The notes: generated from the sequence alone by a model not told the origin. A DNA stretch of 64,000 bases from an uncultured Candidatus Micrarchaeota archaeon (GCA_963800555.1 CAWDBH010000008.1:48258-112257), one strand, 5' to 3'. Positions 9,816 to 62,728 are shown, counted from the stretch's first letter. Program-made: numbers and translations.

Positions 9816-9880
9816 CTTATTTTAAATGATTCTTTTATCGCCGAAAAAATAAATACGCAAAATCTATTTTCCGCGACATG

Positions 9881-43540: not shown

Positions 43541-44128
43541 ATGGCATTCAAGGAGAGGCGGCTGTCGAATCTCAGGAAGGCTATAGATGGGGCAACGCAA
43601 TCCAGGCAGGATGCATTCGCTCGTATGGCAAGGAATTTCGGACCCGATACGCTCGAGCTGATGGATAATCTCGCCGCGGAAGGCTTCTATATCCGCGATG
43701 GCATAGTCAACCGCATTCAAGGCAAATGGCGATCATACCCCAAGATGTCGCTTGCGCAAGCGAGTGAAGCGATGAAGCTGAGCAGGCTTCCGGCGGAGAA
43801 GCTGCCCACCGAAGTTGTTGAAACGCCTCTAGCAGCGCTCGCGAGAACTCATAATGTCATATTGCCGGCCGAAGCACTCTCTTCCGCTGGGATAACACGT
43901 GTGAAAGACTTCTTGGAAGCACCACAAGGAAGGTTGTCCGAAGCGATTGGCGTTGAGGGTTACCAGGAGCTGAGGCATTTTCTGCTCTTTTGCGGCATAA
44001 GGACCCGCACGAATCCACCGCCATCGTATATAGGGACATCAGAAATCGTTTTCTTCGGAGAGATGGTCCTCGGCATGCGAAGGGATCCGCCGGAAGATAT
44101 CACGCGGATGTTCCCTTTTGGAATTTAA
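43541..44128 (+). CDS. hypothetical protein
   Basis: 195-aa ORF. Confidence 0.4.
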   Translation: MAFKERRLSNLRKAIDGATQSRQDAFARMARNFGPDTLELMDNLAAEGFYIRDGIVNRIQGKWRSYPKMSLAQASEAMKLSRLPAEKLPTEVVETPLAALARTHNVILPAEALSSAGITRVKDFLEAPQGRLSEAIGVEGYQELRHFLLFCGIRTRTNPPPSYIGTSEIVFFGEMVLGMRRDPPEDITRMFPFGI

Positions 44129-44258
44129 GCCCCCGGAGCAGTCAGAGGGCTTATCTGAGAACTCCCTTTACACTGCGGTGCCAATATTCGCATCAATTGT
44201 AAAATAGCCCAAAACAGCACATCTGCACGATGGCCGACCTTCCGCTGGAGTTGGGTGC

Positions 44259-45452
44259 ATGAACAAGGTGGATATATACGACTTTCAGCGCAGGCTAGAG
44301 CAAGCGATGGATAAGCTCAGGAAAGATAATATAGGCACGGAAAATATTCGCGATATATCCTCATTCTCCAAAATCAAGCTTGCCAAGGGAGTATCGCCCG
44401 GAAGGGCTGCCAAGATAATCCATTGCCTCCGATTGTTGGCAAAACGGCTCAGAAAACCCTTCAGGCAAGCCACAAAAGACGATTTGATTGCCCTAGTCGG
44501 AAATCTCGAAAGAAGCGACTATGCTGAGCATACAAAGTACGACCTAAAGGTCATGCTGAAAATGTTCTACAAATGGCTCAAAGGAAATGATGAATCCGCC
44601 CCTCCGGAAATCGCTTGGCTGAAGAAAAGCAAGAAAAACCTAAACCATAAGCTCCCCGAAGACCTGTTAAGCGAAGACGAAGTCCTTCAGATGGTCGAAG
44701 CCGCGATAAACCCTCGCGATAAAACCCTGATTTTGGTATTATACGAGACTGGCTGCCGGATTGGTGAACTCCTATCCTTACAGATGAAAAACGTCAATTT
44801 TGACCAATATGGCGCGGTTCTGAGGGTAACTGGTAAGACTGGCGACCGGAGGGTTCGGATTATCAGTTCAGCGCCGGTTCTGGCCTCCTGGCTCAATGCC
44901 CACCCTAGGGCTAATGATCCGGACGCCTGGCTATGGTTCCAATACAAGAATAACAAGAAAACCGATAAGTGCCTGAGGCATGGAACGGTTTATGCGACGC
45001 TCAAGAAGATTGCCAAGAGGGCTGGAATCCAAAAGAAGGTATATCCTCACCTTTTCAGGCATTCAAGAGCTACGGCCCTGGCAAACAAGCTGACGGAAGC
45101 CCAGATGAAAGAACATTTCGGTTGGGTCCAGGGTTCTGAGATGGCGGCTACCTATGTTCATCTATCAGGCCGGGATGTGGATAACGCTTTCTTGAAAATA
45201 CATGGTCTGGTTCAAGCTGAGAACGCTCAAGAAGAAAAACTAAAGCTCAGAATTTGCCAGCGGTGCAAGGATCATAACTCTCCAAGCTCGAAGTTTTGCA
45301 CAAAATGCGGTTTGCCTCTGGACGAACAAACGATGGCTATGATTGAGAATAAGCGGGAGAAGAGCGACAATCTCATGAACAAGCTGATGGACGATGAGGA
45401 ATTCAAGAATTTTATGATGAAGAGGATTGCCGAATTGAGGCTAAATCTTTGA
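44259..45452 (+). CDS. tyrosine recombinase / integrase with a C-terminal zinc ribbon
   Basis: Catalytic R..HLFRHSRAT...Y pattern (R, H-x-x-R, Y) and a C-terminal CQRCK...CTKCG. Confidence 0.85.
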   Translation: MNKVDIYDFQRRLEQAMDKLRKDNIGTENIRDISSFSKIKLAKGVSPGRAAKIIHCLRLLAKRLRKPFRQATKDDLIALVGNLERSDYAEHTKYDLKVMLKMFYKWLKGNDESAPPEIAWLKKSKKNLNHKLPEDLLSEDEVLQMVEAAINPRDKTLILVLYETGCRIGELLSLQMKNVNFDQYGAVLRVTGKTGDRRVRIISSAPVLASWLNAHPRANDPDAWLWFQYKNNKKTDKCLRHGTVYATLKKIAKRAGIQKKVYPHLFRHSRATALANKLTEAQMKEHFGWVQGSEMAATYVHLSGRDVDNAFLKIHGLVQAENAQEEKLKLRICQRCKDHNSPSSKFCTKCGLPLDEQTMAMIENKREKSDNLMNKLMDDEEFKNFMMKRIAELRLNL

Positions 45453-45727
45453 GTTCGCTCCACGACGATGGTTTATGAAATATGCTTGTGTCGTTCGGGG
45501 ATATATAAAGGGATGGCGAATTCAATAGCTCTGAGGCGTATCTCTTGCGAGTTCAGCATCAGGAAAGCCTGTTTTTACTGATTTTCGAGGATGGGAATTC
45601 GCCATACTTCAAGCGTTCTGGGCGTCAATTCGCTTGAACCCGCTCAAAAAGTCAGGGTGAATTATTGAATACCCTCTCGAGTGTTTCTCTGATGTTTGTT
45701 CTAGTTATTCTCTTTTTCGCGCTCTCA

Positions 45728-46070
45728 CAACTATCTATATGGTCAGAACGCTTGTTTCAGTGTGTTCTGGGCTTCAGAACGTTTGAAGCAGTGTGAAAGC
45801 AGTGTGCTTGTTTATATACGCAAAATAGGCGTAACACACTGGTTTTTAGGGGTCAGAAAAGCGGTGTGCAGCGCTTCTTTACACAATAACTCTCGCTCTC
45901 TCATCTCAGGGCAGGAAAAATGCTTGATTCAATGTGCTAATCACGTCGATGAGCCCTAAAAAGCATTGTGCTTTTCATTGTGTTTCTTTATAAACCTGGA
46001 AACGCTTCTGCACAATGATTTCAAGGTCAAAAAAGGCATTGTGCTAACCGAAGAGACGAGTCTTCAATAA
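45728..46070. repeat. array of about 8 degenerate iteron-like repeats (core CAGTGTG / GCATTGTGC) in AT-rich DNA
   Basis: tcagaacgcttgtttcagtgtg, cttcagaacgtttgaagcagtgtg, gcagtgtgcttg, gcggtgtgcagcg, caatgtgct, gcattgtgcttttcattgtg, ctgcacaatga, ggcattgtgct. Confidence 0.45.
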
Positions 46071-46124
46071 GGTAATAAATCTGTTCGAAGTTATGATTAC
46101 GGTGCTATTTTGTCAGATGCCCAA

Positions 46125-47806
46125 ATGGAAGCCGCAAGGAAAGAAATCGAAGAACTCCTAGTGAAATTCAAGCGGGATTCCGAAAGCGGGCGAACCAAGA
46201 CATTGAAGGAGGAGAACACAAAGAAGGATTACATAACTCCTCTTTTCCGGGCCCTCGGATGGGATGTGGAAAACAAAAATGCATCCGACGAAGTAACAAA
46301 TGAAGACAAAATATCAAGAGGAAGGGTTGATTATGCATTCCGGCTGCATAGTATCCCAAAGTTCTTTCTTGAAGCAAAAGCCATGGATAAGGGGCTAGAT
46401 GAAGCCAAAGATGCGATTCAGGCGATTAACTACGCGTGGCATAAAGGCGCGACATGGGCCATTCTCACAGATTTCAAAACGCTCATTGTTTACAACGCAG
46501 AAGTGAAAGAGGAGAATCTTTCGAACTGCCGGTTCATACAGTTGACTTGCGATCAATATCTAGAGCAGTTTCATAGATTATGGTGGCTTTCAAAACCTGC
46601 ATTTCAAGAGGGACTGCTGGACAAGGAAGCCCTGAGTTGGGGCAAAAAACTTAGGAAGACAAAAGTCGGAGACCAATTGCTTCAAGAGCTCATGAGCTAC
46701 CGGATGGCGCTCTCCAAGAATATCCTGAAGAACAATTCCAGTAAAAACCTTTCTGAGGAGGAGATAGACGAAGCGGTACAGAGGATAATCGACCGCCTGA
46801 TTTTCATAAGGACAACCGAGGATAGGCTGGTAGAAGAACCGGTTTTACGACCTCTGGCTCGAGAATTCGATGATAAAAAACGAGGGAAACTTACTACTTC
46901 GCTCAATGAGGTTTATCTTAGATTTGATGATACCTACAATAGCCGGCTTTTCAGCTTCAATCCCAACGATAAAACGCAGAGACACCTATGCGAAAGCCTG
47001 GAAATAGACAATGAAGTTCTAATCGATATCATCAATGGCCTCTATCAGAGCAAAGACGGGCTAACACACTACGATTTTTCGGCAATAGATGCGGATGTCC
47101 TTGGGAATATTTACGAGCAATACCTTAGCCATATCCTAAGAAAAACCGAGAAACGGGCCAAACTGGAAAGCAAGGAGGCACATCGCAAAGAGCAGGGGAT
47201 TTACTATACTCCAACATACATAGTCGAATATATCATCAGAAATACTCTTGGCGAAGTCCTGAAGCGGAAGAAATCAGAAGAGGCCGATAAAATCAAAGTC
47301 CTTGACATGGCTTGCGGCTCCGGCTCTTTCCTTTTGAAGGCTTTTGATGTGATAGACGCGCATCACCAGAAGAATGATAAAGAATACGCCCAGACAAAGC
47401 TGGACCTTGAGAACGAGTCTGCCAGGATAACCAAGAAGATAAAGATACTGAAAAACAATATTTATGGGGTTGATCTAGATCCGAAAGCGATTGAAATAGC
47501 CCAGCTTAACCTCTTGCTCAAGGCGGCTGAAACCCGCCATCGCCTTCCAGATTTGAGGGAGAATATAAAATGCGGGAACTCAATAATTTCAGACCCGACA
47601 GTTGCTGGAGAGCGTGCCTTTGACTGGAACAGGGAATTCGAGGCGATTATGAAAGATGGGGGGTTCGATGTCATTATTGGCAATCCCCCTTATGTAGATA
47701 TCAAGCAGCTAGAACCAAGAATTGTTAATTATCTTTTCAATACATATCCGACAGTTGAAAATAGAATGAATCTATACTCTGTTTTTGTAGAGAATGGTCT
47801 AAAATT
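46125..47806 (+). pseudogene. Type IIG restriction-modification fusion enzyme (N-terminal PD-(D/E)xK nuclease plus gamma-class N6-adenine methyltransferase), N-terminal fragment, interrupted by an IS element
   Basis: N-terminal HsdR-N/Mrr-like nuclease region. GIYYTPTYIVEYII (motif X), VLDMACGSGSFL (motif I), NIYGVDLD and GNPPY (motif IV). The reading frame continues on the far side of the IS. Confidence 0.75.
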
Positions 47807-48838
47807 GGCTCTGTAGAAATGCTTAATTGATAAGTATGCCAATGGGTTTCATCGTCGAGGCTTACCAGGGCCTTGACTCCTCCCAGCGGCGAAATCCATG
47901 CAAAAGAGAACGTCAAAGTTAATTAGAGTAGCGGTTAGGGCCCAGCAGGCAGCCAAGTACGTGCTGCCTGAATATGGAAACAAATTCTCAAGAAAAGACT
48001 TCACTCAGCATCAGCTCCTAGCGATAGCTGTCCTGAAACAGAAGACTGACGAGGATTACAGGGATACTGTTGACGGCATTGGCAGCGACTTGATGCAAGC
48101 GATGGGTCTCACGAAGATACCTCATTTCACTACCCTCCAGAAGTTCATCAAGAGGCTGGACTCACAGGTATTGGATACCCTTATCGCAGTGGTCGCAATC
48201 CTCATCATAGGGGATCAATTGATCAGGGGAGCCGTCGTAGGGATAGACTCTTCAGGATATCCTGCTTCGCATGCCAGCAGCTACTTCGTGAGGAGGATAA
48301 AACGCAAGCCTACGCATAAGACGTTCCTCAAAGGTTCATTCGTTGGGGACCTGACAAATCAGGTCATCGTCTGCTGCAGGCTAAGGAATTTCCCGTCTCA
48401 TGATATCATTGATTTCAGGAGGCTGATGAAACGCGCCCTGATACTCTTGAAGAAGATTTCAGAGGTTCATGCTGACAAGGGGTACGATGGCAAGGATGAG
48501 ATCCTTCTCGTGGAGAAGCTTCTGAAGGCCGTGCCGTACATCAAGATCAAGGAAACCGACAGGCACAAATGCAAAAGCCAGATAAGGCGCAGGGTTTTGA
48601 ACAACTGGAATCGGCTCACCTTCGCTTTGAGGGGGCGGCAGCGCAACCTCATAGAAACAATCAACTCCGTTGTAAAGAGGGTCTTCGGAGACGCCCTCTA
48701 TAGCAAGGGCATCTGGATGCGGCGCAAGGAATTGAAGCTGAAGTACTTTGCCTACAACATTTACCGGTCAGTCCAGCTAGAGGAGATTTTTTGTTGCCTC
48801 GTCTTAAGCTGGACTTAAGAGAGGGTTTCTACAGAGCC
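47807..48838 (+). mobile_element. IS element, copy 1: 1032 bp, 13-bp perfect terminal inverted repeats (ggctctgtagaaa / tttctacagagcc), 8-bp target-site duplication ctaaaatt
   Basis: Identical base-for-base to copy 2 at 57818..58849. TSD at 47799-47806 and 48839-48846. Confidence 0.85.
47898..48818 (+). CDS. DDE transposase (IS4/IS5 superfamily)
   Basis: ...GIDSSGY...ADKGYDG...E pattern; 306 aa. Confidence 0.8.
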   Translation: MQKRTSKLIRVAVRAQQAAKYVLPEYGNKFSRKDFTQHQLLAIAVLKQKTDEDYRDTVDGIGSDLMQAMGLTKIPHFTTLQKFIKRLDSQVLDTLIAVVAILIIGDQLIRGAVVGIDSSGYPASHASSYFVRRIKRKPTHKTFLKGSFVGDLTNQVIVCCRLRNFPSHDIIDFRRLMKRALILLKKISEVHADKGYDGKDEILLVEKLLKAVPYIKIKETDRHKCKSQIRRRVLNNWNRLTFALRGRQRNLIETINSVVKRVFGDALYSKGIWMRRKELKLKYFAYNIYRSVQLEEIFCCLVLSWT

Positions 48839-49936
48839 CTAAAATTGCTAAAAAACGGGGGGTACTTCGGTTTCATCATTCCAAATTCTATCCTTTACAA
48901 CGAATCATACAGTAAGATACGAGACAGACTTTTGCAATCAACTTCATTGAAAAAAATTGTGCGGCTACCGGATAATGTATTCAAAGATGCAAAAGTAGAA
49001 ACGATAATTTTAATCTTCCAAAAAGGCAACCCGCATAAAAATATCTGCGAAGTGCTAATATATGATAGACTTGCAAATATCAACTCCATAACTATCGAAA
49101 CTTGCAAACAACATGTTTTATTTAATCAAGATACCTGGAACGAGGGGCAGAAAACGATAAACATCACCCTCAATAAGTCGTTTAGTGAGTTATTGAAGAA
49201 AATCGAAATGACTACTGTTCCTCTCGTTGAACTATGCGACTTTTCTCTTGGTCTTACCCCTTATGATAAATACAAAGGACACACACAAAAACAAATAGAA
49301 GAGCGTGTGTTTCACTCTTCAACGAAAAAGAACGAAACTTTCAAACCGCTCTTATCTGGGGAGAATATAGTGAGGTATGGCATTTTTTGGGATAAGAAAG
49401 AGTACATTAGCTACGGTAGTTGGCTAGGTGCAGCTAGAGAAAAAAGATTTTTCACCGAACCTCGGATTGTAGTTAGGCAGATTATTAGTGGCAAGCCACT
49501 GAGGATCTACGCGGGGTATAGCGAGGATGAATTGTACAATGCACAAATCGGCTTTAATCTATTGCCAAAAGACAAAGCACAGATCCAGATTAAGTATGTG
49601 CTGGCAATTTTAATTTCGAAGTTAATGACTTTTTACCACCGAGAGAGGTATTTAGACCCATCAAAAAATCTTTTCCAGAAAATATTAATAGCAAACGCTA
49701 AGAGATTCCCTATAAAACTCGCACCTTCTAGCGAACAGCAAAAAGTTGTAAATTTAGTCGATAAACTACTCGCTTTGAAGAAACGATTATTTGATCTAGG
49801 CGATAAACAAACCGAAGAATCAGCCAAACTTGAAAAGGAGATTGCCGAACTCGACCGCAAGATTGACGAGCTGGTTTTTGATCTTTACGGTCTAACAGCG
49901 GAAGAACGGAAAATCGTTGAAAAAGCGATGAAGTAG
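48839..49936 (+). pseudogene. Type IIG restriction-modification enzyme, C-terminal fragment (remaining methyltransferase motifs plus target-recognition domain), downstream of IS copy 1
   Basis: Continues ...FVENGLKL|LKNGGYFGFIIPNSILYN...; the track ORF 48791..49936 starts inside the IS right end. Confidence 0.7.
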
Positions 49937-49941
49937 AAGTC

Positions 49942-50274
49942 TTAATGAACTAACAAGATAATGGCAGCAACGACAATTGAGCAGTATGCCCAACTGAGCC
50001 AATAATAAATCTGGGGGAGACTGTTACCAATCGCATATGCAGCGATACCGACCACCCCCATAATTAGTCCGATATTTGAATACCAGACTAAGAGGTCGCT
50101 CGGGTTCGATAACGATATCACAAATAGATTTATCGCCAGCGTATTACAAAATGTCGAGGTTCGCCCCACGAACTGCTTTTCTACAAGATAGCCTACGATA
50201 AACAGGGATAAGGCGGGTAACAATCTTAGAAGCGTGTCTGGCAAAATATTTATCCAAAGTGAAGACATACTCAT
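49942..50274 (-). CDS. hypothetical membrane protein
   Basis: 110 aa, 3-4 TM. Confidence 0.4.
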   Translation of the reverse strand: MSMSSLWINILPDTLLRLLPALSLFIVGYLVEKQFVGRTSTFCNTLAINLFVISLSNPSDLLVWYSNIGLIMGVVGIAAYAIGNSLPQIYYWLSWAYCSIVVAAIILLVH

Positions 50275-50278
50275 CCCT

Positions 50279-50635
50279 TCAAGCTATCGGTAGTCCCTTC
50301 GGTGTCAGTGCATCTGCAAGCAAGTGGCTGAGATAAGCTGCTGCAAGCGAAGCGGCTGCCGCTTTTTGCTCCGCTGAGGTTGTGCTCTGCCCCCACGTCT
50401 CTTTGGCCATATGGGTAACAATCCCGGCTGCGGTCAAGCTGTGCGCGAATGACCGGTGGTTAGGTCCATAAGCTGGCTCGATAATGTCTGGGAGTACCGC
50501 TACTCCAGCCCCCATGACGCCCCATCCCACTGCATTCCCCAAGTCAACCGTTTCACCCTGCGCTCGCTTAGCGGCAACATATGTTCCAAAACCAAACAGA
50601 GCTCCGAGAAGGAGATGTTCATTGCAATTTGACAT
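50279..50635 (-). CDS. DUF457 (YdjM-like) membrane-associated metal-dependent hydrolase
   Basis: ...LPDIIEPAYGPNHRSFAHSLT... Confidence 0.5.
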   Translation of the reverse strand: MSNCNEHLLLGALFGFGTYVAAKRAQGETVDLGNAVGWGVMGAGVAVLPDIIEPAYGPNHRSFAHSLTAAGIVTHMAKETWGQSTTSAEQKAAAASLAAAYLSHLLADALTPKGLPIA

Positions 50636-50640
50636 CCGTC

Positions 50641-50979
50641 TCACCTCTTCTTCCTGCTCCAATTGCCAAGGAACTGCCATCTTTGCTGGCCCTCGCTTCT
50701 ATGGACGGAAACTGCAACTCCGCCCCTTTCCTTTGCCAAGGCCCGGAGATCCCTACGTCCATCGCTATCCAGGCGAGCCCCACCGCTCTTGACTTGGACA
50801 TAATACTTCACACCATCTTTCTTTGCATATATGTCCGCAGGTCCACGGCTTCCAGCGCTCAAACGGATATTCTCGTATCCCTTATCCGCAAGATCACGCG
50901 CCACTTTTCCTTCCGCGATTCTTCCAGAACGATATCGGTTTATCATTCCACCATCCCGTTGCTTATGGCAACTTTGCAA
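50641..50979 (-). CDS. Hjc-like PD-(D/E)xK nuclease (archaeal Holliday-junction-resolvase fold)
   Basis: GRIAEGKVARDLADKGYENIRLSAGSRGPADIYAKKDGVKYYVQVKS matches the Hjc pattern G..E..V...L...G...R...S...DI.A.K.G....V.VKS. Confidence 0.5.
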   Translation of the reverse strand: MQSCHKQRDGGMINRYRSGRIAEGKVARDLADKGYENIRLSAGSRGPADIYAKKDGVKYYVQVKSGGARLDSDGRRDLRALAKERGGVAVSVHRSEGQQRWQFLGNWSRKKR

Positions 50980-51040
50980 TTTACTTTGTTTTAAATGTTA
51001 TGTGGAAAGTTATTTAAAGCTGCTCTTTGGATAACTACTC

Positions 51041-51346
51041 ATGGATATTCGTGAGCTGGTTCGGGACGCCCAGGCTCTCAATTCCAAATTGATATCCGTT
51101 CCACGGCTTCTCATCCTTTTCTCATTAGAAGGTCTTGGACGTGATGGGGCTGCCTATAGGGAATTGAAAGCAGGGTTGGAGATGGATGATGGGTTGCTGT
51201 ATTCAAACGTGGATGCCCTCAAGGAGATGGGGTATGTCAAAGAAAAGGACATTAGATTGGAGAACAAAGAGATGACGTCGTATTATATTACCGAGGAAGG
51301 GAAGGAAGCCCTTAGCAGTGCCAGAGCATGGTTGAAGAAAATCTGA
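51041..51346 (+). CDS. winged-helix transcriptional regulator
   Basis: 101 aa, wHTH-like; translationally coupled (TGATG) to the next gene. Confidence 0.5.
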   Translation: MDIRELVRDAQALNSKLISVPRLLILFSLEGLGRDGAAYRELKAGLEMDDGLLYSNVDALKEMGYVKEKDIRLENKEMTSYYITEEGKEALSSARAWLKKI

Positions 51347-51891
51347 TGGACGGTGGCAACATGGGGGAGCTGAGAAAAGTTATTGCTTGTATACGAGAGT
51401 TGGACAAAAAAATGAAGGTTGACAATTTTCAGGATAAACTAGTGATCCAGAAGACGGTTTGTCTTCTTGAATTGCTTGGTTTCGATATGAAATACGGATT
51501 TTCTATGTATGTCCGGGGACCGTATTCTCCGGCATTAACAGAGGATTTATATCAAAATAAAGAAGCAGTCGAGAACCTCAGGACCGATTATGTGCCTAGT
51601 GGCAAAGAGAAATCTATGATTTCCGTGATAGGCGAAGCCAGCAATCATTTTGAGCCTTCGATGCTGGAAATCATGGCAACATATGCCTTCCTCATAAAAA
51701 GGAGCTCTTATGGAGGGAAAGAAGCCATCACAGAATTGAAAAGAATTAAACCATTCTATTCCGAAACCAAGATTGCGGTGGGTGTTTCAAGGGCGAAGCA
51801 GCTTTTCCCGGCAACTGAAAAAGAGGTTCGGGATATGAAAGCTGAATTCAAGGAGATCGAAGCAGCATCGACATCTGATAACAAATATTGA
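51346..51891 (+). CDS. Panacea-domain (DUF4065, SocA-like) putative antitoxin
   Basis: ...KLVIQKTVCLLELLGFDMKYGFSMYVRGPYSPALTEDLY... matches the DUF4065 core. Confidence 0.6.
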   Translation: MDGGNMGELRKVIACIRELDKKMKVDNFQDKLVIQKTVCLLELLGFDMKYGFSMYVRGPYSPALTEDLYQNKEAVENLRTDYVPSGKEKSMISVIGEASNHFEPSMLEIMATYAFLIKRSSYGGKEAITELKRIKPFYSETKIAVGVSRAKQLFPATEKEVRDMKAEFKEIEAASTSDNKY

Positions 51892-51901
51892 TAGTGGAAA
51901 A

Positions 51902-52240
51902 ATGGCGGGCCATGTTAAAGCAGAGATTTGGCAGGCAGACTTCAGCGGCTCCAGAGGGCATGAACAGAAGAAAGAGCGTCCATGCATTATTTGGAGGGAT
52001 TTGGATCATCTTGGAATGGCCGTGGTTATACCGCTAACTGGTTCTCTTGAAAGGGACAATCTGCCCCATACCCTTCGTATTGACCCATCCACCAAGAACG
52101 GACTGGAAAAGGAAAGCATTATCCTTGTTTTTCAGATAACCGCGATAGACAAGTGCAGATTGTTAAAGAAAGTGGGGGTACTGGACGACGGAGAAATTGA
52201 AACTGTGGCTGCCCTCTTGAAAGACCTTTTACGGATTTAG
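51902..52240 (+). CDS. MazF/PemK-family endoribonuclease toxin
   Basis: ...GHEQKKERPCIIW...GMAVVIPLTGS... motif. Confidence 0.7.
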   Translation: MAGHVKAEIWQADFSGSRGHEQKKERPCIIWRDLDHLGMAVVIPLTGSLERDNLPHTLRIDPSTKNGLEKESIILVFQITAIDKCRLLKKVGVLDDGEIETVAALLKDLLRI

Positions 52241-52654
52241 TCAATCGTCAAACTTCCTTCAGGTCAAACCTTAAATAGCTCATATCCCAGAAATGCCTTC
52301 AGTGGAAGGCTAACTCGGTCTTCGTGCAAGGTGCGTCCTCAGATAAAACTAGAAAGCCCCCGGAGGGGTGCCGGGCCAAAGATTGTTTCCTTACACAACC
52401 ATATGACATCAAGCATGTCTAATCAATATATTGCAGGGAAAATTTTTATGCGTTTTGGAAACTTTCTTCACTATCCATACATGAAGGTGCTGAAGACTAG
52501 CAAATACGTCTTTGTCCTGGAATTTAAGGATTTTATCGGAAGACCCGTTCTATCGTGAGACATTTACCAGCATTTAAAAGAACTGAAGTGGAATGCGAAC
52601 GTAGACGGGAAACTGCCGGTTGGGAGACTGGCACTGCCATAAAGGTTTTGGAGT

Positions 52655-54031
52655 ATGAACCGGGAAGAACTGCTAGACCTAATAAAGACGGGCGAAGGTT
52701 ACTGCCTTGACTTCAAGGAGCGGCTACCCTTGGATTTAGGCAAGGACATATGCGCGTTCATCAATGGTTCTGGAGGCAAGATAATCCTCGGAGTGCGCGA
52801 TGATGGTTCACCGTCAGGCTATATCCTGGACAATACGGATGAGGCAAGGATAAATTCGATGGCGAGAAATCTTGATCCTTCGGTCAGGGTGACGGTTGAG
52901 AGGGTGGGCGAATTCGCAGTTATCCACATACCCGAAGGTGAAAACAAGCCGCATTCATTGTCCGGGCGGTTCTACCTGCGGATCGGTTCCACTTCCCAGC
53001 AGCTTGAGCGTGACGAGATACGGGATTTTTTCCAAAAGGAGCGGCTCGTGCGCTTCGATGAGAAACCGAACATGGAATTCGATTTCGAGCATGATTTTTA
53101 CAAGCTGAAATTCGACGATTACCTCAGAAGAGCGAAATTGACGCCGCTTCAGGATCAAAGGGATACGCTCGTGAACCTCAATCTCCTGGACAGCGGATAT
53201 ATGAGGAACGCAGGGGTGCTCTTCTTCACCCAGAGGATAACCAAATTCTTTATGAGTGCCACTGTGGTTTGTGTGCTTTACCAAGGTACTGACAAGCACC
53301 AGATACTTGACAGAAAAGAGTTCAACGCAGATCTCCTCTCCAATTTCGAGAATGCGTTCGTTTATACTTGCTCCAAGCTCAACACGAATTTCATTATAAA
53401 GGCAGAACGCACCAATCGACTTGAGCTTCCGGAAGAAGCGCTGCGAGAGGCGCTTATCAATGCCATCGTTCACCGCGACTATTTTTCTACCGGACAAGTC
53501 CAGGTCGATATTTACCTTGACAGGGTGGATATTTCAAACCCCGGAGGACTCGTTTCTGGGCTTGAGAAGAAAGACTTAGGAAAAAGAAGTATGCCCCGTA
53601 ATCCCTTGCTGATGGACCTCCTGCTTCGCATCGACAAAGTGGAAAAAGTAGGCTCCGGCATAAGGCGGATACGAAAGGCTATGGAAGAATACGGGCTTAA
53701 GGCGAAATTCGACATAAGTCAAGGTTTCTTTTCGGTTGTTTTCCCAAGAACCCCCCAAGGCGCTTATCAGGGTATCCCCCAAAATGCCCCCGGAAGTACC
53801 CCCCCAGTGACCCCCCTAGTTACCCCCCCAGTTGGACTTACCCCCCTAGAGCAAAAAATATACGATGAGATAAAAAACGATCCGAAAGCATCCAGCAAAA
53901 TACTTTCAACCCGACTTTCAATCAGCAAGGACACGGTCAAAGAGTACCTGGAAAAACTCAAGGCTAAAGGTGTCATCCGCAGGGTCGGCAGGACAAGCAG
54001 TGGGCACTGGGAGATCATTAAAAGAGAGTGA
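52655..54031 (+). CDS. AlbA_2 (Schlafen-like divergent AAA) plus HATPase_c_4 ATP-binding protein with a C-terminal wHTH
   Basis: N-terminal ...CLDFKE...ICAFINGSGGKIILGV... (AlbA_2); ...LREALINAIVHRDY...VDIYLDRVDISNPGGL (HATPase-like); C-terminal HTH. Confidence 0.7.
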   Translation: MNREELLDLIKTGEGYCLDFKERLPLDLGKDICAFINGSGGKIILGVRDDGSPSGYILDNTDEARINSMARNLDPSVRVTVERVGEFAVIHIPEGENKPHSLSGRFYLRIGSTSQQLERDEIRDFFQKERLVRFDEKPNMEFDFEHDFYKLKFDDYLRRAKLTPLQDQRDTLVNLNLLDSGYMRNAGVLFFTQRITKFFMSATVVCVLYQGTDKHQILDRKEFNADLLSNFENAFVYTCSKLNTNFIIKAERTNRLELPEEALREALINAIVHRDYFSTGQVQVDIYLDRVDISNPGGLVSGLEKKDLGKRSMPRNPLLMDLLLRIDKVEKVGSGIRRIRKAMEEYGLKAKFDISQGFFSVVFPRTPQGAYQGIPQNAPGSTPPVTPLVTPPVGLTPLEQKIYDEIKNDPKASSKILSTRLSISKDTVKEYLEKLKAKGVIRRVGRTSSGHWEIIKRE

Positions 54032-54111
54032 TGAAGTTGATGGTAAGTCTGAGATGATGCGGGGGATGTGTTAGCAGGTGAAACAAAGAATCGCCAAAGC
54101 GGGAAGCCTAA

Positions 54112-56028
54112 ATGAGGGGGTTGAATATGATAACATACAAAACAGAGCCATATGAAGAACAGACACATATGAAACACAAAGTATTTCAGGAGTATTTTGA
54201 CAACTGGGTTAAGATACTTGGGAGTGCAAATAACCTAAATTATATAGATGGTTTCTCTGGTGCTGGGGCATATAAAGATACCAAGACCGGCAAGGTATTT
54301 TTTGGTTCGCCAGTTCTTGCAGCGCAAACTATACAAGCGAATAAAAAGGAGAAAACAACAACTCTCGTGTTCATTGATAAAAAACAAGAGAGTCTGAACA
54401 ATGTTAAAAAAATACTAACTGAGAGTGGATTAACGGATTTAACTATTCATTACATAAACGACGATTTTGATAAAACGATTAATTCACTTCTAGCGGAATC
54501 AAAAAATCTAGCCCCAACATTCGTTTTTATAGATCCATTTGGATACAAGATAAACTATCAAACTTTAAAACGAATAATGAGTATAAACAAATCAGAAATT
54601 TTGCTCAATTTTATGTTCAATTCCGTCAGTAGATTCATGAGTGATAAAAAGTTGGATAAGACAATTACAGAACTTTTCGGAACAGATGAATGGAAAGAAA
54701 TAGTCAAACTCGAAGGGATACCTAGAGAGGAAGGAATACGCAAATTATATCGCCAACAACTTAAGAAGATTTCTAAGTTCGTAATGCCATACCGGTTAGA
54801 GTTTCCAGACAAAAAACGCACTTATTACTACATATTTCATCTAACCAACCACGTCAAGGGCTGTAGTATAATGAAGTCGAGTTTTGCCAAATATGCTCAT
54901 GGAAGGACCGAATGGCTGGGAACAGATGCAGATCAGATAAAGTTAACCGAGATTGATGGGATAAAAGATGAATCGCTCGAAAATTATTTCATAACGAAAT
55001 ATAGTGGAAAGAGACCATCATTCGCGAAGATAATTGAAGAGAACATTGATGAAACTGATTATCTTGAAAGCGATATGACCAAAGCAATTCGAAAACTAGA
55101 GGATAGTAACCGAGTATACATAGAACGATTTCCAAAACTTACTGAAAAAAGAAAACAAATGCGCGAAAGCTTAGAAAAAAATGATATTATACATTTCAAT
55201 GTTTTTCCGAGCATAGAAAGAAAGACACTTTTATACAAGACTAAAGTCGAATATGGTAACTATACTATAAATCATGTTTTGGGTTGTGCGCATGGATGTG
55301 CGTATCCCTGTTATGCAATGATGATGGCACAAAGATATGGACGCGTAAAGAATTACGATGACTGGATCCACCCGCGCCTTGTATCCAATAGCCTTGAAAT
55401 TTTGGACAGAGAAATACCAAAATATAAGAACGATATCGACTTTGTTCATCTGTGCTTCACCACCGATCCATTCATGTATGACGCTAAGAACAAGAGAACG
55501 TACAAAGAAATCGAAAAAATGACGTTGAGTATAATAAAAAAATTGAATAACAACGGAATCAAGTGTACAGTGCTTACAAAAGGTCTTTACCCCAAAGAAT
55601 TAACTAAAGATGAATTCTTGAGGGATAACGAGTATGGAATAACAATAGTTTCGCTTGATGCCAAGTTCAGAAAAGAATTTGAGCCATTTTCAGCGCCATT
55701 TGAACAAAGAATTGCCGCGCTTAAACATTTACATGACAACAGATTGAAAACTTGGGTGAGCATTGAACCATATCCAACTCCTAACATAATCAAGCAAGAC
55801 CTAAGCAAGTTGCTTGAAACATTATCGTTCGTCGACAAGATAATTTTCGGAAAAATGAACTATAATGCATCAATAAAAGCATATGAAAACAACGAAGAAT
55901 TCTATAAGAAGTGCAGCCAGACTGTGACGGATTTCTGCACAAAAAAGAGGATAAAGCTCCATATAAAAGAAGGAACACCGACTAACTACTGCAATCAAAC
56001 GGAAGAAATATTTAAGGGTGAAGAATAA
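54112..56028 (+). CDS. fusion protein: N-terminal TcmP-like domain plus C-terminal radical-SAM-like domain with a non-canonical Cx3Cx3C motif
   Basis: N-terminal ...NYIDGFSGAGAYKD...FGSPVLA...FIDPFGY (assigned to the three-Cys-motif partner protein TcmP family from recalled family descriptions, not a search). C-terminal ...HVLGCAHGCAYPCYAM... with downstream SPL/photolyase-like radical-SAM core blocks. Confidence 0.6.
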   Translation: MRGLNMITYKTEPYEEQTHMKHKVFQEYFDNWVKILGSANNLNYIDGFSGAGAYKDTKTGKVFFGSPVLAAQTIQANKKEKTTTLVFIDKKQESLNNVKKILTESGLTDLTIHYINDDFDKTINSLLAESKNLAPTFVFIDPFGYKINYQTLKRIMSINKSEILLNFMFNSVSRFMSDKKLDKTITELFGTDEWKEIVKLEGIPREEGIRKLYRQQLKKISKFVMPYRLEFPDKKRTYYYIFHLTNHVKGCSIMKSSFAKYAHGRTEWLGTDADQIKLTEIDGIKDESLENYFITKYSGKRPSFAKIIEENIDETDYLESDMTKAIRKLEDSNRVYIERFPKLTEKRKQMRESLEKNDIIHFNVFPSIERKTLLYKTKVEYGNYTINHVLGCAHGCAYPCYAMMMAQRYGRVKNYDDWIHPRLVSNSLEILDREIPKYKNDIDFVHLCFTTDPFMYDAKNKRTYKEIEKMTLSIIKKLNNNGIKCTVLTKGLYPKELTKDEFLRDNEYGITIVSLDAKFRKEFEPFSAPFEQRIAALKHLHDNRLKTWVSIEPYPTPNIIKQDLSKLLETLSFVDKIIFGKMNYNASIKAYENNEEFYKKCSQTVTDFCTKKRIKLHIKEGTPTNYCNQTEEIFKGEE

Positions 56029-57817
56029 CAAAATTGAACTGGTAAATGGCCCTGTTAATATTTGGAATATAATAAAGCAATCCACTGGTGAAACAATGAG
56101 AAAACTGGCTCAAGATACAAAACTCTTCAAACCTAAATTCGATCAAGTCAAATATAATCAATTTTTACAGGTAATATCTGGGATATACTCCCTTCTTTCC
56201 TTAAAACTTAAGGATAACGTATCGCTCTCTTCAGTTCTTGAAAATAAGTCCCCTCTGAAAACAAATCTAAAGCCTGATTTTGTCGGAAAGCCGGAATTCT
56301 TTACACGTGAAAACGTTATTGATCTGCTCTTGAATTGCTTAGGATACACTCTGCAACATCGAGCTGGAGAAAGTGATCTTAAGCAAATCTTTGGTAGCAA
56401 ATATCCAGATTATAAGCTGATAACCAGTCCGACTTTACAGATTTTAGTCGAAGCAGAGCCTCTGAACGAGGACATTTACAGTACACCAAACGCTGGGTTG
56501 AATCAGGTCTATGTTTGGCTTGAATCTAAGCGAAGTAAAACGGATTATGGTATCGCAACTAACGGTTTCGAATGGGTACTTGTACAATATCTTGTTGAAG
56601 CTAACAAAAAAATCGAAATTAAAAAAGTTGATTTAACCCCCTTTTTCTTAAAATTATTTGGAAAGCAAGTGTCTGATTCGACTCTAAAAGAAATCTTTCT
56701 TGATTTTATTTCCTACTTTTCCATCGAAACCTCCGAATCTGCGATAAGTGGATTTGTTAAAATTCAAAATGATAAACGAGAAGAAATCAGTAAGAAGTTT
56801 TATGAGAGGTATCTAGAAGCAATCTTTGGTGTGAATAGAGAGGGTAAAAAAATATACCATCATTCTCTTTTTGATGCTATCCAGAATGTACCGAATAATG
56901 AAGAAAGAAAGATAATCGCTCAGCTTACAGTGAACAGATTAATCTTCATCAAATTTATTGAAAGTAAGGGGTGGATAAACAACAATCCTCGTTTTCTTAA
57001 GGATCTCAAGGAGCAATACGCAAAAAGCCCCACTCCGGCCGGCTTTTTCAAAACCTATCTTGAGCCTCTTTTCTTCTTGGCACTGAATAACCCCAACACA
57101 AAGAAACCACATCCATACGAGAATGTTCGCTACCTTAACGGAGGTCTTTTCAGAAAGGATAGAATAGAAGAAGCAAATGCATCCTATGACATTTCTAACG
57201 ATGAATTACTGCGGATTATAGATTTCCTCGAAGACTATGATTTCAAGATTAAAGGAAGTACTACCCACGAAGGTAAAGAAACACTTGATCCTGAAATCCT
57301 GGGTTATATCTTCGAAAGAACGGCAAATCACGAAGCAGGTGCATATTATACACCAGAACCAGTTACTAGATATATTGCAGATCAAACAATTGAATCACTT
57401 GTCATAGAACGAATCAATGCCTATCTTAGGGAAAAGGGGGAAAAAGAAAAATCTGACTTATATTCAATATTTGGAGAAAATGGGCTGGACATAGATCATT
57501 TAAGAAACCTTTATGAAAAACGTCAGATTCTGAGCATAAAAATTCTTGATCCTGCATGTGGTAGTGGGGCATTTTTCATTCCTGTAATACGAAAATTGAT
57601 GGATACTTCATAAGCGTTTTTATAAAGAAATCAACAGAATTGAACCAAATCAGTACCAGCTCCAGAAAAGAATTGTCGAAGATAATATCTATGGTGTAGA
57701 TATAAACGAAGAAGCAATAGAAATTGCTAAACTGCGTTTGTGGCTTGACCTTCTTGATTCTGTTGAGGCTATCGAAGAAGTTGATGCGTTACCCAATATT
57801 GAATATAACATAATGGC
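56018..57817 (+). pseudogene. second Type IIG restriction-modification fusion enzyme, N-terminal fragment; frameshift near 57610 and IS insertion at 57818
   Basis: N-terminal nuclease domain, AYYTPEPVTRYIAD (motif X), ILDPACGSGAFF (motif I). After the stop at 57613 the +1 frame continues NIYGVDINEEAIEIAKLRLWL...LPNIEYNIMA up to the IS. Confidence 0.7.
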
Positions 57818-58849
57818 GGCTCTGTAGAAATGCTTAATTGATAAGTATGCCAATGGGTTTCATCGTCGAGGCTTACCAGGGCCTTGACTCCTCCCAGCGG
57901 CGAAATCCATGCAAAAGAGAACGTCAAAGTTAATTAGAGTAGCGGTTAGGGCCCAGCAGGCAGCCAAGTACGTGCTGCCTGAATATGGAAACAAATTCTC
58001 AAGAAAAGACTTCACTCAGCATCAGCTCCTAGCGATAGCTGTCCTGAAACAGAAGACTGACGAGGATTACAGGGATACTGTTGACGGCATTGGCAGCGAC
58101 TTGATGCAAGCGATGGGTCTCACGAAGATACCTCATTTCACTACCCTCCAGAAGTTCATCAAGAGGCTGGACTCACAGGTATTGGATACCCTTATCGCAG
58201 TGGTCGCAATCCTCATCATAGGGGATCAATTGATCAGGGGAGCCGTCGTAGGGATAGACTCTTCAGGATATCCTGCTTCGCATGCCAGCAGCTACTTCGT
58301 GAGGAGGATAAAACGCAAGCCTACGCATAAGACGTTCCTCAAAGGTTCATTCGTTGGGGACCTGACAAATCAGGTCATCGTCTGCTGCAGGCTAAGGAAT
58401 TTCCCGTCTCATGATATCATTGATTTCAGGAGGCTGATGAAACGCGCCCTGATACTCTTGAAGAAGATTTCAGAGGTTCATGCTGACAAGGGGTACGATG
58501 GCAAGGATGAGATCCTTCTCGTGGAGAAGCTTCTGAAGGCCGTGCCGTACATCAAGATCAAGGAAACCGACAGGCACAAATGCAAAAGCCAGATAAGGCG
58601 CAGGGTTTTGAACAACTGGAATCGGCTCACCTTCGCTTTGAGGGGGCGGCAGCGCAACCTCATAGAAACAATCAACTCCGTTGTAAAGAGGGTCTTCGGA
58701 GACGCCCTCTATAGCAAGGGCATCTGGATGCGGCGCAAGGAATTGAAGCTGAAGTACTTTGCCTACAACATTTACCGGTCAGTCCAGCTAGAGGAGATTT
58801 TTTGTTGCCTCGTCTTAAGCTGGACTTAAGAGAGGGTTTCTACAGAGCC
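57818..58849 (+). mobile_element. IS element, copy 2: identical 1032 bp, same terminal inverted repeats, 8-bp target-site duplication ataatggc
   Basis: TSD at 57810-57817 and 58850-58857. Confidence 0.85.
57909..58829 (+). CDS. DDE transposase (IS4/IS5 superfamily), identical to copy 1
   Basis: Protein identical to the 47898..48818 product. Confidence 0.8.
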   Translation: MQKRTSKLIRVAVRAQQAAKYVLPEYGNKFSRKDFTQHQLLAIAVLKQKTDEDYRDTVDGIGSDLMQAMGLTKIPHFTTLQKFIKRLDSQVLDTLIAVVAILIIGDQLIRGAVVGIDSSGYPASHASSYFVRRIKRKPTHKTFLKGSFVGDLTNQVIVCCRLRNFPSHDIIDFRRLMKRALILLKKISEVHADKGYDGKDEILLVEKLLKAVPYIKIKETDRHKCKSQIRRRVLNNWNRLTFALRGRQRNLIETINSVVKRVFGDALYSKGIWMRRKELKLKYFAYNIYRSVQLEEIFCCLVLSWT

Positions 58850-60442
58850 ATAATGGCTGGAAATAGCCTTATCGGTACTGACGTGATTCCAGAAATGGCG
58901 CGGGCAGATTTCTATACCTATTATCATCCTACCCGATTTGAACAAATTATTCAGGTATATCCTGACTTGAAAATCGAAACAGACGCACTTATTGGCAAGT
59001 CTACTCAATTCAATATGACCTTTAATGACCTCTTCTTACTTAGGAATAAATTAATCACCAAATACCGCAGCGAGACTCATCCTATATATGCCACAAGATT
59101 AAGAGATATTATCGAGCAAATCTCCGAAAAATTCCGTTTTGAACTCTCAAGGGTATATTTCCATAATGCTCTGAGAATAGAAAAAACTGAAGATTTAAAT
59201 TCAGCAATAATCAAGTTTAAACCCTTCAACTGGATTATGGAATTCTCAGATGTTTTCGAAAAAGGCGGATTTGATGCAGTAATTGGAAATCCCCCGTATG
59301 ATGTTATTTATTCAGGTGAGAATCCTTTAGATGTTAAAACCTTCAAAACGATTTATACAACGGCTGAGTATAATCCGAATTTATTCTGTTTATTCGTAGA
59401 CCGTTCATTATCATTATTAAATCAAAAAGGACTTTTAGGATTTATTATCCCAGATACTATATTAACAAATAAATATTTTGGTAACCTTAGAAGAAAGATT
59501 TTATCAATTTCGAGTATTCTCCAAATTTTAGACTTAAGTAGTGGCGTTTTTCCAGAAGCTATAGTGGATACAATAATTTTTATTCTGAAAAAAGAAGTTA
59601 TACAAGATAATGAAATATTTATAGGTTATAATATAACAAGTAGTGAAGCTATCGCATCAAGAAACTTCAAAAGTAAAAAAATGTTTCAGAAAGAATTTAT
59701 TAATTCCAATAACAACGAGTTTAATATTTATTTTGATAGCGGACTCGAACCTTTAAAAAATCAGATATGGCTGAATTCGGTAAAAATTGAAGAAATTGCA
59801 AATATAAAACGAGGCTTAGTTACCAAAGATAATTCTAAATTTGTGTACACTGACAAAACAGTCGATAAATGCTCTGATAGCTCAAAATTAAAACGTGTTT
59901 TAATTGGTGGAGATGCAAGTCGATACCTATTACATTATAGCGGTAATTATGTTCTTTTTGATGCTTCTGCAAAAGGCGGTGGGTGCTGGGATCGAGAGAT
60001 TTACGAAAATAAGGAAAAGATACTAATCGCATTAATTACAGGAGGAATGAATTATAGAATTAATGCCACTTATGATTCAACCAAATTTTATGCATTACAA
60101 AATTATAACGTGCTTATAGTAACTGATTCTAAATTTTCAACAAAATACGTTTTAGGAATCATAAATTCAAAACTAATATCAAACTATTATGAATTATTTT
60201 TCAATGATAAAAATATAAAAAGAGTGCAACTATTGAGTTTACCCATAAAAGTTGCAACTGACGCAGAGCAACAAAAAATTGCTAATTTAGTCGATAGGCT
60301 CCTTTCGTTAATGTCTGATTGCAATGTAGAAAAGCATAAAACAGAAATTAAAAAAGCGAATGAAGAAATCGATGAGTGTGTTTACAAATTATACGGCATA
60401 ACTGAGACTGAAAGGAAATTAATCGAAAATAATCTGGCGTAG
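58850..60442 (+). pseudogene. second Type IIG restriction-modification enzyme, C-terminal fragment (motif IV GNPPY plus target-recognition domain)
   Basis: ...IMAGNSLIG...FDAVIGNPPYDVIYS...; the track ORF 58802..60442 starts inside the IS. Confidence 0.7.
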
Positions 60443-60768
60443 GGGGGCTTCCAGCGAAGAAGTAAAATGAAAAAGAAGTCATCCCGCTCGGCCGGAAACG
60501 CACTTAAAGTTTAGGCCTTCGGTTCGCTCTTCGAGCGAAAACTTTAATGTGCCTTTCGGCCTCGCTTCTACCATGATTTTGCTTCGCCAGGCTTAGCCTT
60601 ACTCGAATTTTCTTTGTCTTCTCTTAGGTTTTCTTCTTGCCTCATCTTTAGCTCCACCCCTGCTATTTTCTCTCGCTTCAAAACATCCGCCCTTTAGCCA
60701 GGGGGCGCGGGCGTCGTTTTGAAGCTCGCGAGAAAAAACGGGCTTCAAGAAGTCCGGGAAGTGGTAAA

Positions 60769-61242
60769 ATGACGAATGAAAACAGCGGAATTATGGAAGC
60801 CTTTTCCTTCCGAAAAGGCGTTGTGAAGATAAGCGGCAGATGGATCCGCTTCGGTCCGGAGGCCGAGAGCGCCGTAAAGGCCCTGTCGAAGGGCGACTGC
60901 GTGAGCTACGTTGTCGAGAATGGCAATCTCAAACGGATTGAGAAAAGCCAGCAGAAGCCCACCCCCGCAGTGGTTACAGCCCCTGTGAAGGCCCAGACTT
61001 CAGCAAATCCAGGTAATCCGGCCAATCCATCCTTCCAGGACCGGAACAAGAGCATAGAACGCCAGGTGGCCCTGAAGGCGGCGGTGGAGCTCGCAGGGCT
61101 CTACGGCTACAAAAGCACCAAGGAGTGCCTGGACGTGGCGGCCAGCTTCGCGGCTTGGATCGAAGCGGGCAGTTCTGGGGACGTGCAGTTTAACGGTTCC
61201 GCAGCAGCGGGGAGGACGGCGAACCCGTCCCCCTCCAACTGA
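60769..61242 (+). CDS. hypothetical protein (GC-rich)
   Basis: 157-aa ORF. Confidence 0.4.
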   Translation: MTNENSGIMEAFSFRKGVVKISGRWIRFGPEAESAVKALSKGDCVSYVVENGNLKRIEKSQQKPTPAVVTAPVKAQTSANPGNPANPSFQDRNKSIERQVALKAAVELAGLYGYKSTKECLDVAASFAAWIEAGSSGDVQFNGSAAAGRTANPSPSN

Positions 61243-61243
61243 G

Positions 61244-61444
61244 GTGATGACCATGAGCGAACCCAACACTTGGGAGGGCAAATCCGCCATCCTTTTCACC
61301 AAGGAAGACAGCGTAGGCATGCCGGTCCGCATCGTCCGGTTCCTAGGCGTTTTCGTGGAAGTAGAGAACAACCAGGGCAAGGCCCGCCTCTACCCCACGG
61401 ACAATATAGCCTATTTCCAGTTTTTAGGCTCCAAGGGGTGTTGA
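61244..61444 (+). CDS. small hypothetical protein
   Basis: 66-aa ORF tightly following the previous gene. Confidence 0.3.
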   Translation: MMTMSEPNTWEGKSAILFTKEDSVGMPVRIVRFLGVFVEVENNQGKARLYPTDNIAYFQFLGSKGC

Positions 61445-61446
61445 AC

Positions 61447-61818
61447 ATGGCTGAAACTCTCTTCGAAGGTGCTGAGGTCATATCCAGCTACACGACCAAG
61501 GACGCCGTTGAGGACGGCGTTCTGATTGACCTTCACGCCATCGGTAAGATTCCGGTCTATCTGCCGGTTTATAGCGGCATCCGGTACGCCACGGCCGCCC
61601 TTCTTGGCAAGGGGTACATGTCCGGTACGGAGTTCAACCGCCCAAATCTGGCGGATCTCCTTGTCCAGATATCCCTGGGTATTCGGAAGGGCCTGTCCAA
61701 GGGCGAGGACCGGCTTTTCGAGGCCAAAGTCGAGTTTCCGGATGGTCATAAAGAGAAGGTCTGGGCCGTCCTTAATGAGGAAGGGAGCCTGACGATCATG
61801 CTGCCGGAAGACTACTGA
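61447..61818 (+). CDS. hypothetical protein
   Basis: Start moved to MAETLFEG; the upstream part of the track ORF 61270..61818 overlaps the preceding gene and is low-complexity. Confidence 0.4.
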   Translation: MAETLFEGAEVISSYTTKDAVEDGVLIDLHAIGKIPVYLPVYSGIRYATAALLGKGYMSGTEFNRPNLADLLVQISLGIRKGLSKGEDRLFEAKVEFPDGHKEKVWAVLNEEGSLTIMLPEDY

Positions 61819-62618: not shown

Positions 62619-62728
62619 AGGGAGTATTTAATGATACATGTTTTACTACTACTACTAACAGAGATGCGTGAGTTGCGAGCTGCTAAGTCATAGTGGGCAA
62701 AGAAGCGGAATCCCGCTCCGAGAGATCA

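Follow-up and report, generated by a model that had tools for sequence, protein, structure and literature searches.

What is the low-GC tract of defence and mobile genes near the middle of this 64,000-nt sequence from an uncultured Candidatus Micrarchaeota archaeon (CAWDBH010000008.1:48258-112257; hereafter the window, whose coordinates are used throughout), and does it represent one integrated element or more than one? An earlier note, made from the sequence alone, had described an integrated island of about 16 kb whose left edge carries a tyrosine integrase. We find that positions 44127-52365 are a complete integrative element of 8.2 kb (E1), with both attachment (att) sites and an intact integrase. 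The tract as a whole is probably a composite island, in which E1 is joined to a second block of defence DNA without an integrase (E2) at a single tRNA-Thr(CGT) hot spot. The features are listed in Table 1, and related or matching contigs with which the window was compared carry L numbers (L005, L022-L028, L034, L036, L038).

The low-GC block is foreign DNA in a Micrarchaeota (DPANN) genome. GC content is 0.53-0.62 at 35-44 kb, 0.31-0.50 at 44-61 kb and 0.54-0.60 beyond 61 kb. Measured in 3-kb windows against the 10-44 kb core, the correlation of tetranucleotide usage is 0.80-0.93 within the core, ranges from 0.40 to -0.10 at 44-61 kb and climbs back to 0.79 at 61-64 kb. GC content at third codon positions (GC3) is 0.70-0.80 in flanking core genes, 0.40-0.56 in the genes of E1 (44.2-52.3 kb) and 0.26-0.57 in those of E2 (52.6-60.4 kb). 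All three measures shift abruptly at about 44.1 kb and recover at 60.4-60.8 kb. Thus the sharp fall in GC that the earlier note claimed from the integrase rightwards is borne out by computation and GC is not uniform across the region, and its broader claim of integrated foreign DNA with a tyrosine integrase at the left edge and mostly defence or mobile cargo is supported. The integrase does lie near the left edge, although the edge is not at 44259, where the note had set it, but at 44127/44128, where the upstream gene has its stop codon.

To the left of the block the gene order KaiC, a 202-aa gene, Nop56, YfcE-like, GNAT, tRNA-Pro (in most loci) and a HEAT-repeat gene is held in about 19 of 21 other Micrarchaeota loci. 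The HEAT-repeat gene and tRNA-Pro therefore belong to the core, as had been proposed. The Nop56 gene (39687-41009) matches only Micrarchaeota genomes, the best at 86% identity. Since the HEAT-repeat gene downstream of tRNA-Pro (42082) is conserved core, we rejected this tRNA as the att site, in agreement with the earlier view. A metagenome scan with the 195-aa protein encoded at 43541-44128 found two close relatives with an empty site, L022 and L023. L022 and the window share 94% identity in the HEAT-repeat and 195-aa genes, and homology stops at window position 44138 in L022 and L023 alike. L022 encodes tRNA-Thr(CGT) on the minus strand (L022 3438-3510), with the 3' end of this gene overlapping the 195-aa stop codon, and then tRNA-Gly(TCC), a secreted protein, TIM and L10e; in L023 tRNA-Thr(cgt) likewise comes directly after the 195-aa gene and the site is unoccupied. 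In the window the stop codon of this core gene is at 44126-44128, and only 11 nt of tRNA-Thr (44128-44138) are retained before the sequence diverges into one common with L005, where an integrase 80% identical to that of the window lies downstream of L005's own HEAT gene. The target of integration is the 3' end of the minus-strand tRNA-Thr(CGT) gene directly after the 195-aa gene. The comparison with relatives lacking the island, which the earlier note had recommended, thus provides empty sites (L022, L023) together with occupied ones (L026, L027, L024).

The two ends of E1 are marked by an exact 12-mer, AAGCCCCCGGAG, which has only two copies in the window, at 44127 and 52354 on the same strand. 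The left arm that follows the first copy is approximately 90% identical to the sequence at the same position in L024-L027 and 77% identical to that in L005, and the similarity begins exactly at the core. The right arm that precedes the second copy is about 115 nt long; positions 52250-52367 are 85% identical to L026 16656-16773, 85% to L027 9067-9184 and 86% to L024, and in these three loci the right arm ends at the core that starts tRNA-Thr. Because the second core is preceded by the right arm of the family and the first is followed by its left arm, 44127-52365 is one complete element. Immediately after the second core the window reads GGGTGCCGGGCC and the intact site reads GGATTTGAACCC, so that the match to the tRNA continues for only two more bases. 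The earlier note had seen no flanking att repeat by eye and had suggested a search for one between the left edge and 60.4-62.3 kb. A 12-nt flanking repeat does exist, with its second copy at 52354; the suggested search returned chance words and no att core. An exact-word comparison of 41.9-44.5 kb with 60.3-62.6 kb found chance 10-11-mers only, and a sensitive search of 52.24-52.66 kb against 60.4-64 kb found chance matches only, including an inverted 8-mer of the core at 60443 (E ~18). A direct att repeat bounds E1 only.

The integrase gene is intact and lies 120 nt inside attL. Its product has all of the residues R167, K193, H264, R267, W289 and Y299, which make up the catalytic R-K-H-R-(H/W)-Y set, and CxxC motifs at 333/347; with the Pfam match in Table 1, this bears out its earlier identification as a tyrosine integrase. 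Integrases 92-93% identical to it occupy the same site in L024-L027, and among 18 other Micrarchaeota loci whose sequence extends to this position none has an integrase there; only L005 has one. The closest solved structures are those of archaeal XerA, 4a8e (E=1.9e-19) and 5hxy, and its viral relatives are found in Geoglobus acetivorans pleomorphic virus 1 (38% identity) and pleomorphic virus ThalV2 (34%), over 92% of the protein. With the NCBIfam XerA model NF040815 it reaches 115 bits, where the cut-off is 220. Being under the family cut-off, variably present and flanked by att sites, it is not a chromosomal XerA dimer resolvase.

The same arrangement recurs in related genomes with other cargo. 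L026 and L027 each have two direct copies of the core AGCCCCCGGAG, one lying 120 nt upstream of a 92% identical integrase and one forming the 3' end of an intact tRNA-Thr(CGT). The two cores enclose 6.9 kb with two unknown genes and a restriction-modification (RM) gene of the MmeI type, and TIM (~89% aa) and L10e (~95% aa), which lie beyond the island on its right, correspond to those that flank the empty site of L022 on the same side. L024 has the same arrangement with 9.6 kb enclosed and an intact tRNA at attR. GC falls inside all three islands too. The cargo of L024 (9870-19500) includes, in place of defence genes, those for a Na+/H+ exchanger, an MFS transporter, enolase, a dynamin-like GTPase and a prenyltransferase-like protein, and the GC of this element (0.45-0.53) is slightly under that of its flanks. 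Tandem arrangements are present as well. L034 has three direct cores (8649, 9888 and 15149) at tRNA-Thr, the first two of which bound a 1.2 kb segment that lacks an integrase and encodes DUF134, DUF5320 and AdoMet decarboxylase. In L036 an integrase 73% identical to that of the window sits at the 3' end of tRNA-Glu(CTC), with 12-mers repeated at 9785, 15781 and 16720.

Conserved between elements are the left arm, the integrase, a non-coding motif stretch and the right arm only, and the cargo differs each time. The conserved parts form a backbone, the rest being exchangeable cargo. The XerA-like integrase would recombine attP, in which the right arm, core and left arm are joined in the circular form, with the last 11-13 nt of tRNA-Thr, and integration would leave the 12-nt direct repeat at both ends; excision presumably proceeds through a circular intermediate.

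The motif stretch is defined by CAnTGTG/CACAnTG sites, 9 of the window's 20 falling within 45453-46110, where 0.2 are expected. It lies downstream of the integrase in L024, L026, L005 and L034, and occurs twice in L026, bracketing a two-gene cassette. Folding of the alignment gave no convincing covariation, and on this ground we rejected the reading of the array as an RNA gene. It is more likely to be bound by protein, as a promoter/operator or by the integrase, than to act as RNA, and it may also be a replication origin. The 'iteron array' of the earlier note holds good as a repeated-motif non-coding stretch. Between the integrase stop codon and the array lie 256 nt (45453-45708) that are absent from L005, L024 and L026 and contain a perfect 11-bp inverted repeat with the arms ATGGCGAATTC (45513-45523) and GAATTCGCCAT (45595-45605).

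Table 1. Coordinates of the island's features in the window.
Feature	Position	Strand	Remarks
attL core AAGCCCCCGGAG	44127-44138	+	44128-44138 are the last 11 nt of minus-strand tRNA-Thr(CGT)
E1 left arm, begins CAGTCAGAGGGCTTATCTGAG	44139-44258	+	Upstream of integrase gene
Tyrosine integrase, 397 aa, XerA-like, C-terminal zinc ribbon	44259-45452	+	Pfam Phage_integrase PF00589 E=4.9e-22, and zinc-ribbon models
Non-coding motif array	45709-46050	.	Two similar modules, CAnTGTG/CACAnTG sites around TTTATA(T/A)A boxes
Type IIG RM1, interrupted by insertion sequence (IS) copy A	46110-49936	+	Pfam Eco57I, N6_Mtase, TaqI_C; PADLOC REase_MTase_IIG E=2.7e-102
IS copy A, 1032 bp	47807-48838	+	DDE transposase 47898-48818, IS4/IS5 superfamily, Pfam DDE_Tnp_1
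Three small genes: 110-aa membrane protein, YdjM-like 133-aa, PD-(D/E)xK-like 112-aa	49942-50979	-	YdjM E=2.1e-10
Operon: winged helix-turn-helix (wHTH) 101 aa, 187-aa protein, MazF 112 aa	51041-52240	+	HTH_34 E=2.7e-13; PemK/MazF E=4e-21
E1 right arm and attR core (AAGCCCCCGGAG at 52354-52365)	52250-52365	+	Arm homology to L026, L027, L024
Block E2, integrase-less, lower-GC defence DNA	52366 to ~60442	+	Pfam, NCBIfam, PADLOC matches
AlbA_2/HATPase_c_4/HTH protein	52655-54031	+	In E2
TcmP-radical SAM (rSAM) fusion	54112-56028	+	TIGR04474 189.6 bits, cut-off 53
Type IIG RM2, split by IS copy B	56018-60442	+	In E2
IS copy B, within RM2	57818-58849	+	100% identical to copy A
Hairpin-rich spacer	60443-60768	.	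Two long hairpins; fold z-score -2.4 plus strand, -2.6 minus strand

How E2 came to adjoin E1 is a separate question. The likeliest origin of E2 is tandem accretion at tRNA-Thr, by which further foreign defence DNA, without an integrase of its own, would have been joined to the attR core of E1; the far end of this DNA, with the body of tRNA-Thr, would either have been separated by a later rearrangement or lie beyond the window. We favour accretion because tandem arrays occur in the family (L034, L036). The junction is also contained in an independent short-read contig, L038 (run ERR11571142), which covers the right arm, the core and E2 and equals window 52338-57846 save for one base. L038 starts at the first 31-mer that holds the first E2-specific base, a break 17 nt to the left of the core. 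Such a start fits a branch in a de Bruijn graph, and judging from this one contig end the other continuation in the sample is possibly, and most simply, E1 joined to the body of tRNA-Thr.

Several observations weigh against a composite formed in this way. The att core is short (11-13 nt), and the case for its second copy rests on arm homology, not on the repeat alone. We found no circular form or attP junction, and a pattern scan of viral contigs for the core with the left arm was negative. E2 has no similarity to any relative locus compared and no arm of the family, and the sequence that follows the core (GGGTGCCGGGCC and onwards) is unlike the family's left arm. The window contains no third att core and no tRNA-Thr body, so that E2 is not flanked by att sites there. 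Moreover, GC within E2 is mixed, with 0.49 in the AlbA_2 gene against 0.31-0.36 in the rSAM fusion and RM2.

In a different history, E1 would have integrated normally and the tRNA would have been cut 13 nt from its 3' end by a later rearrangement, whether an inversion, a deletion or an illegitimate recombination, that brought in E2 together with the region from p157 to the [FeFe]-hydrogenase gene; the att site would then have played no part in the arrival of E2. The tRNA-Thr body, tRNA-Gly, TIM and L10e, which synteny would place to the right of the island, occur nowhere in the window, GC3 at 60.8-64 kb is host-like (0.69-0.80), homologues of the hydrogenase (70-72% identity) sit in unrelated core contexts of related genomes, and the armless left end of E2 agrees with such a break. 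However, the breakpoint falls no more than 2 nt from the att core, as site-specific accretion predicts and as a random break would achieve only by coincidence, and integrase-less segments flanked by cores exist in L034 and probably in L036. On balance we regard a rearrangement of this kind as rather unlikely and prefer accretion.

The compositional right edge of the island is at 60.44-60.77 kb, and the expected synteny never resumes in the window. At 200-nt resolution the GC transition lies between 60442 and ~60770, rising in steps from 0.24-0.38 in the last RM gene to 0.46-0.47 in the spacer (60443-60768) and 0.55-0.61 from 60769 onwards. GC3 is 0.69-0.75 in three small genes at 60.8-61.8 kb and 0.80, the highest of the region, in the hydrogenase gene. 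The structured repeats of the spacer, which had been put forward as a possible right boundary, do coincide with the compositional edge, but the spacer has no significant att core and no tRNA, nor any Rfam match. The genes at 60769-61818 (p157, p66 and p123) have host-like composition and no homologue in any Micrarchaeota locus compared. A second contig, L028, equals 58826-64000 and continues for 920 nt past the window, the extra sequence encoding a wHTH protein. The contexts of the hydrogenase homologues and of an AlbA_2 homologue gave no help in placing the right boundary.

Inserted DNA might also run on past the window, as E2 itself or as further tandem elements that would include p157, p66, p123, a tRNA-like gene at 61907 and even the hydrogenase, with an intact tRNA-Thr past 64.9 kb. 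The gene order of L022 has not resumed at 64000 or, in L028, at 64919, the L024 element has metabolic cargo of near-host GC, and the wHTH gene just outside the window and the lack of homologues of p157, p66 and p123 point the same way. We nevertheless think such an extension unlikely, given that composition is host-like from 60.8 kb and the hydrogenase has a GC3 of 0.80.

The single element of the earlier note, which would run for ~16.5 kb from the integrase to ~60760, is very improbable. The low-GC block is unbroken from 44.1 to 60.8 kb and holds one integrase only, yet the exact internal core at 52354, placed after the ~115-nt right arm that ends the complete islands L026, L027 and L024, closes an 8.2 kb element with an integrase-less block after it; moreover, 60.4-62.7 kb contains no att core, and GC3 drops stepwise from E1 to E2. 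Least probable of all is a chimeric assembly, with E1 and E2 misjoined at a short repeat: the window has at least one indel error (57605) and the break in L038 marks a graph branch, yet the first 31-mer of L038, across right arm, core and first E2-specific base, is identical to the window, and the IS insertions are consistent (matching target duplications, restored reading frames), so that no misjoin lies at the only long repeats.

The cargo makes the composite a defence island: it comprises two type IIG RM genes, both disrupted by an IS, MazF, the TcmP-rSAM fusion (PADLOC candidates PDC-M30A and PDC-M41) and the AlbA_2/HATPase_c_4 protein. Profile searches confirmed the two RM genes, two IS copies, MazF, AlbA_2 protein and TcmP-rSAM fusion that the earlier note had listed, and failed to sustain two of its labels. 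The 187-aa protein, called Panacea, has no Pfam family at E<=5 save a spurious 13.8-bit match, leaves the Panacea/DUF4065 model unmatched, and has a weak PADLOC match to DarG (E=3.4e-4). The 112-aa PD-(D/E)xK-like protein, called Hjc-like, has no Hjc match in profile searches and instead shows a borderline match to Mrr_cat at the 21-bit cut-off and a weak one to YraN. The reading frames for the wHTH, 187-aa and MazF proteins overlap or abut. No virion, packaging, replication or conjugation genes were detected in Pfam searches. In a PHROGs scan of ten proteins from E1, E2 and the flanks, the integrase and a regulator were the only matches with a named function, the others being to families of unknown function, and scans of viral contigs with the integrase, p157, p123 and the rSAM fusion were negative. 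A provirus or conjugative element was rejected for the lack of virion, packaging, replication and conjugation genes.

The two IS copies have 13-bp terminal inverted repeats (GGCTCTGTAGAAA) and 8-bp target duplications that differ, CTAAAATT for copy A and ATAATGGC for copy B. Because each copy has its own target duplication, they represent two separate insertions, and we rejected recombination between the copies for the same reason. Excising copy A with one duplication gives back a single 928-aa open reading frame for RM1, and the apparent frameshift in RM2 is due to one extra A at 57605 that is not in L038. Since the RM1 frame can be restored and the RM2 frameshift is absent from the short reads, both genes are broken by the IS alone. 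In the history that we favour, the IS came later, entering each of the two type IIG RM genes in a separate event and inactivating it. No other IS is present in the window, and neither copy lies outside a type IIG RM gene, which may be due to chance, target preference or selection for loss of restriction. The extra A suggests a long-read assembly as the source of the window, with some indel errors left in it.

Some features outside the island deserve mention. At 61907-61990 (+) there is an odd tRNA-like gene, which ARAGORN calls as an 84-nt tRNA-Ala(TGC), with a class-II-type D arm and a long variable arm (Rfam 37 bits). Its acceptor stem has four G-U pairs (including 1-72, 3-70 and 7-66) and a G2-A71 mismatch, and a normal tRNA-Ala(TGC) is found at 9504-9576. 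We rejected it as an att site, since it has no sequence in common with the left junction. Rfam matched nothing inside the island and only two tRNAs, both outside it. The hydrogenase-like gene at 62729-63832 (-) encodes a minimal 367-aa [FeFe]-hydrogenase-like protein with the catalytic domain only, and homologues at 50-81% identity occur in other Micrarchaeota/DPANN contigs. Far to the left, window 1-10000 is a second deviant stretch (GC 0.46-0.51, tetranucleotide r 0.47-0.76) that ends near the tRNA-Ala at 9504-9576 and may be another variable region; proteins without a Pfam family are encoded there at 1876-2715, 2828-4246, 4318-5232 and 7732-8583. Finally, the gene for the DNA polymerase II large subunit (DP2; 12578-17422, +) contains an intein bearing a LAGLIDADG homing-endonuclease domain.

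Micrarchaeota are a DPANN lineage with tiny genomes, in which, to our knowledge, mobile elements have barely been described, and a full-text literature search found no description of an island of this sort from them. For a family of integrative defence islands in this lineage, the att sites, the empty site and the conserved backbone are now defined at the nucleotide level. The tRNA-Thr site is occupied in several metagenome-assembled genomes, with different cargo in each, and so offers a marker for mining DPANN defence systems, including the TcmP-rSAM fusion. At this locus, too, one IS has silenced two restriction genes, and the tRNA gene of an integration hot spot has apparently been lost. 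More speculatively, these elements could be a distinct class of minimal 'defence shuttles' that keep only an integrase, two arms and a palindromic CAnTGTG array. The array would be a site of cassette exchange or the origin of the circular form, roles suggested because its copies in L026 bracket one cargo cassette; the integrase would mobilise E2-like neighbours in trans, and accretion might cost a reduced genome its tRNA-Thr(CGT). We consider this proposal doubtful. The island is a well-known kind of element, tRNA-targeting with an intact integrase and defence cargo, in a little-studied lineage, and current concepts of genomic-island function are unchanged by it.

Comparison with known systems places each part of the locus. 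The IS shares a DDE_Tnp_1 transposase, terminal inverted repeats and target duplications with the IS4/IS5 superfamily; it differs in that its transposase falls under the NCBIfam IS5 family cut-off (125 bits against 140), in an 8-bp target duplication and in the location of its copies inside type IIG RM genes. The integrase has the same catalytic residues as archaeal XerA (4a8e, 5hxy) and the integrases of pleomorphic viruses, its best sequence relatives, but unlike them has an extra C-terminal zinc ribbon and an N-terminal extension, and is without linked viral genes. SSV-type archaeal integrases are likewise tRNA-targeting tyrosine recombinases. SSV-type integration splits the integrase gene, as attP lies inside it; here the reading frame is intact and attP lies outside the gene, and we therefore rejected an SSV-type integrase. 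Islands that target tRNA genes with an intact tyrosine integrase include those of pNOB8-type archaeal integration and the tRNA-linked defence islands of bacteria. E1 is unlike these in its DPANN host (Micrarchaeota), in a core of only 11-13 nt, in having no detected replication, conjugation or virion genes, in a family backbone reduced to integrase, arms and palindromic motif array, and in that the tRNA itself is missing in this copy. It resembles them in having an integrase beside one att site, short direct repeats whose sequence is identical to that of the tRNA 3' end, an empty site in relatives, foreign composition, variable defence-rich cargo and, probably, tandem accretion at the same tRNA.

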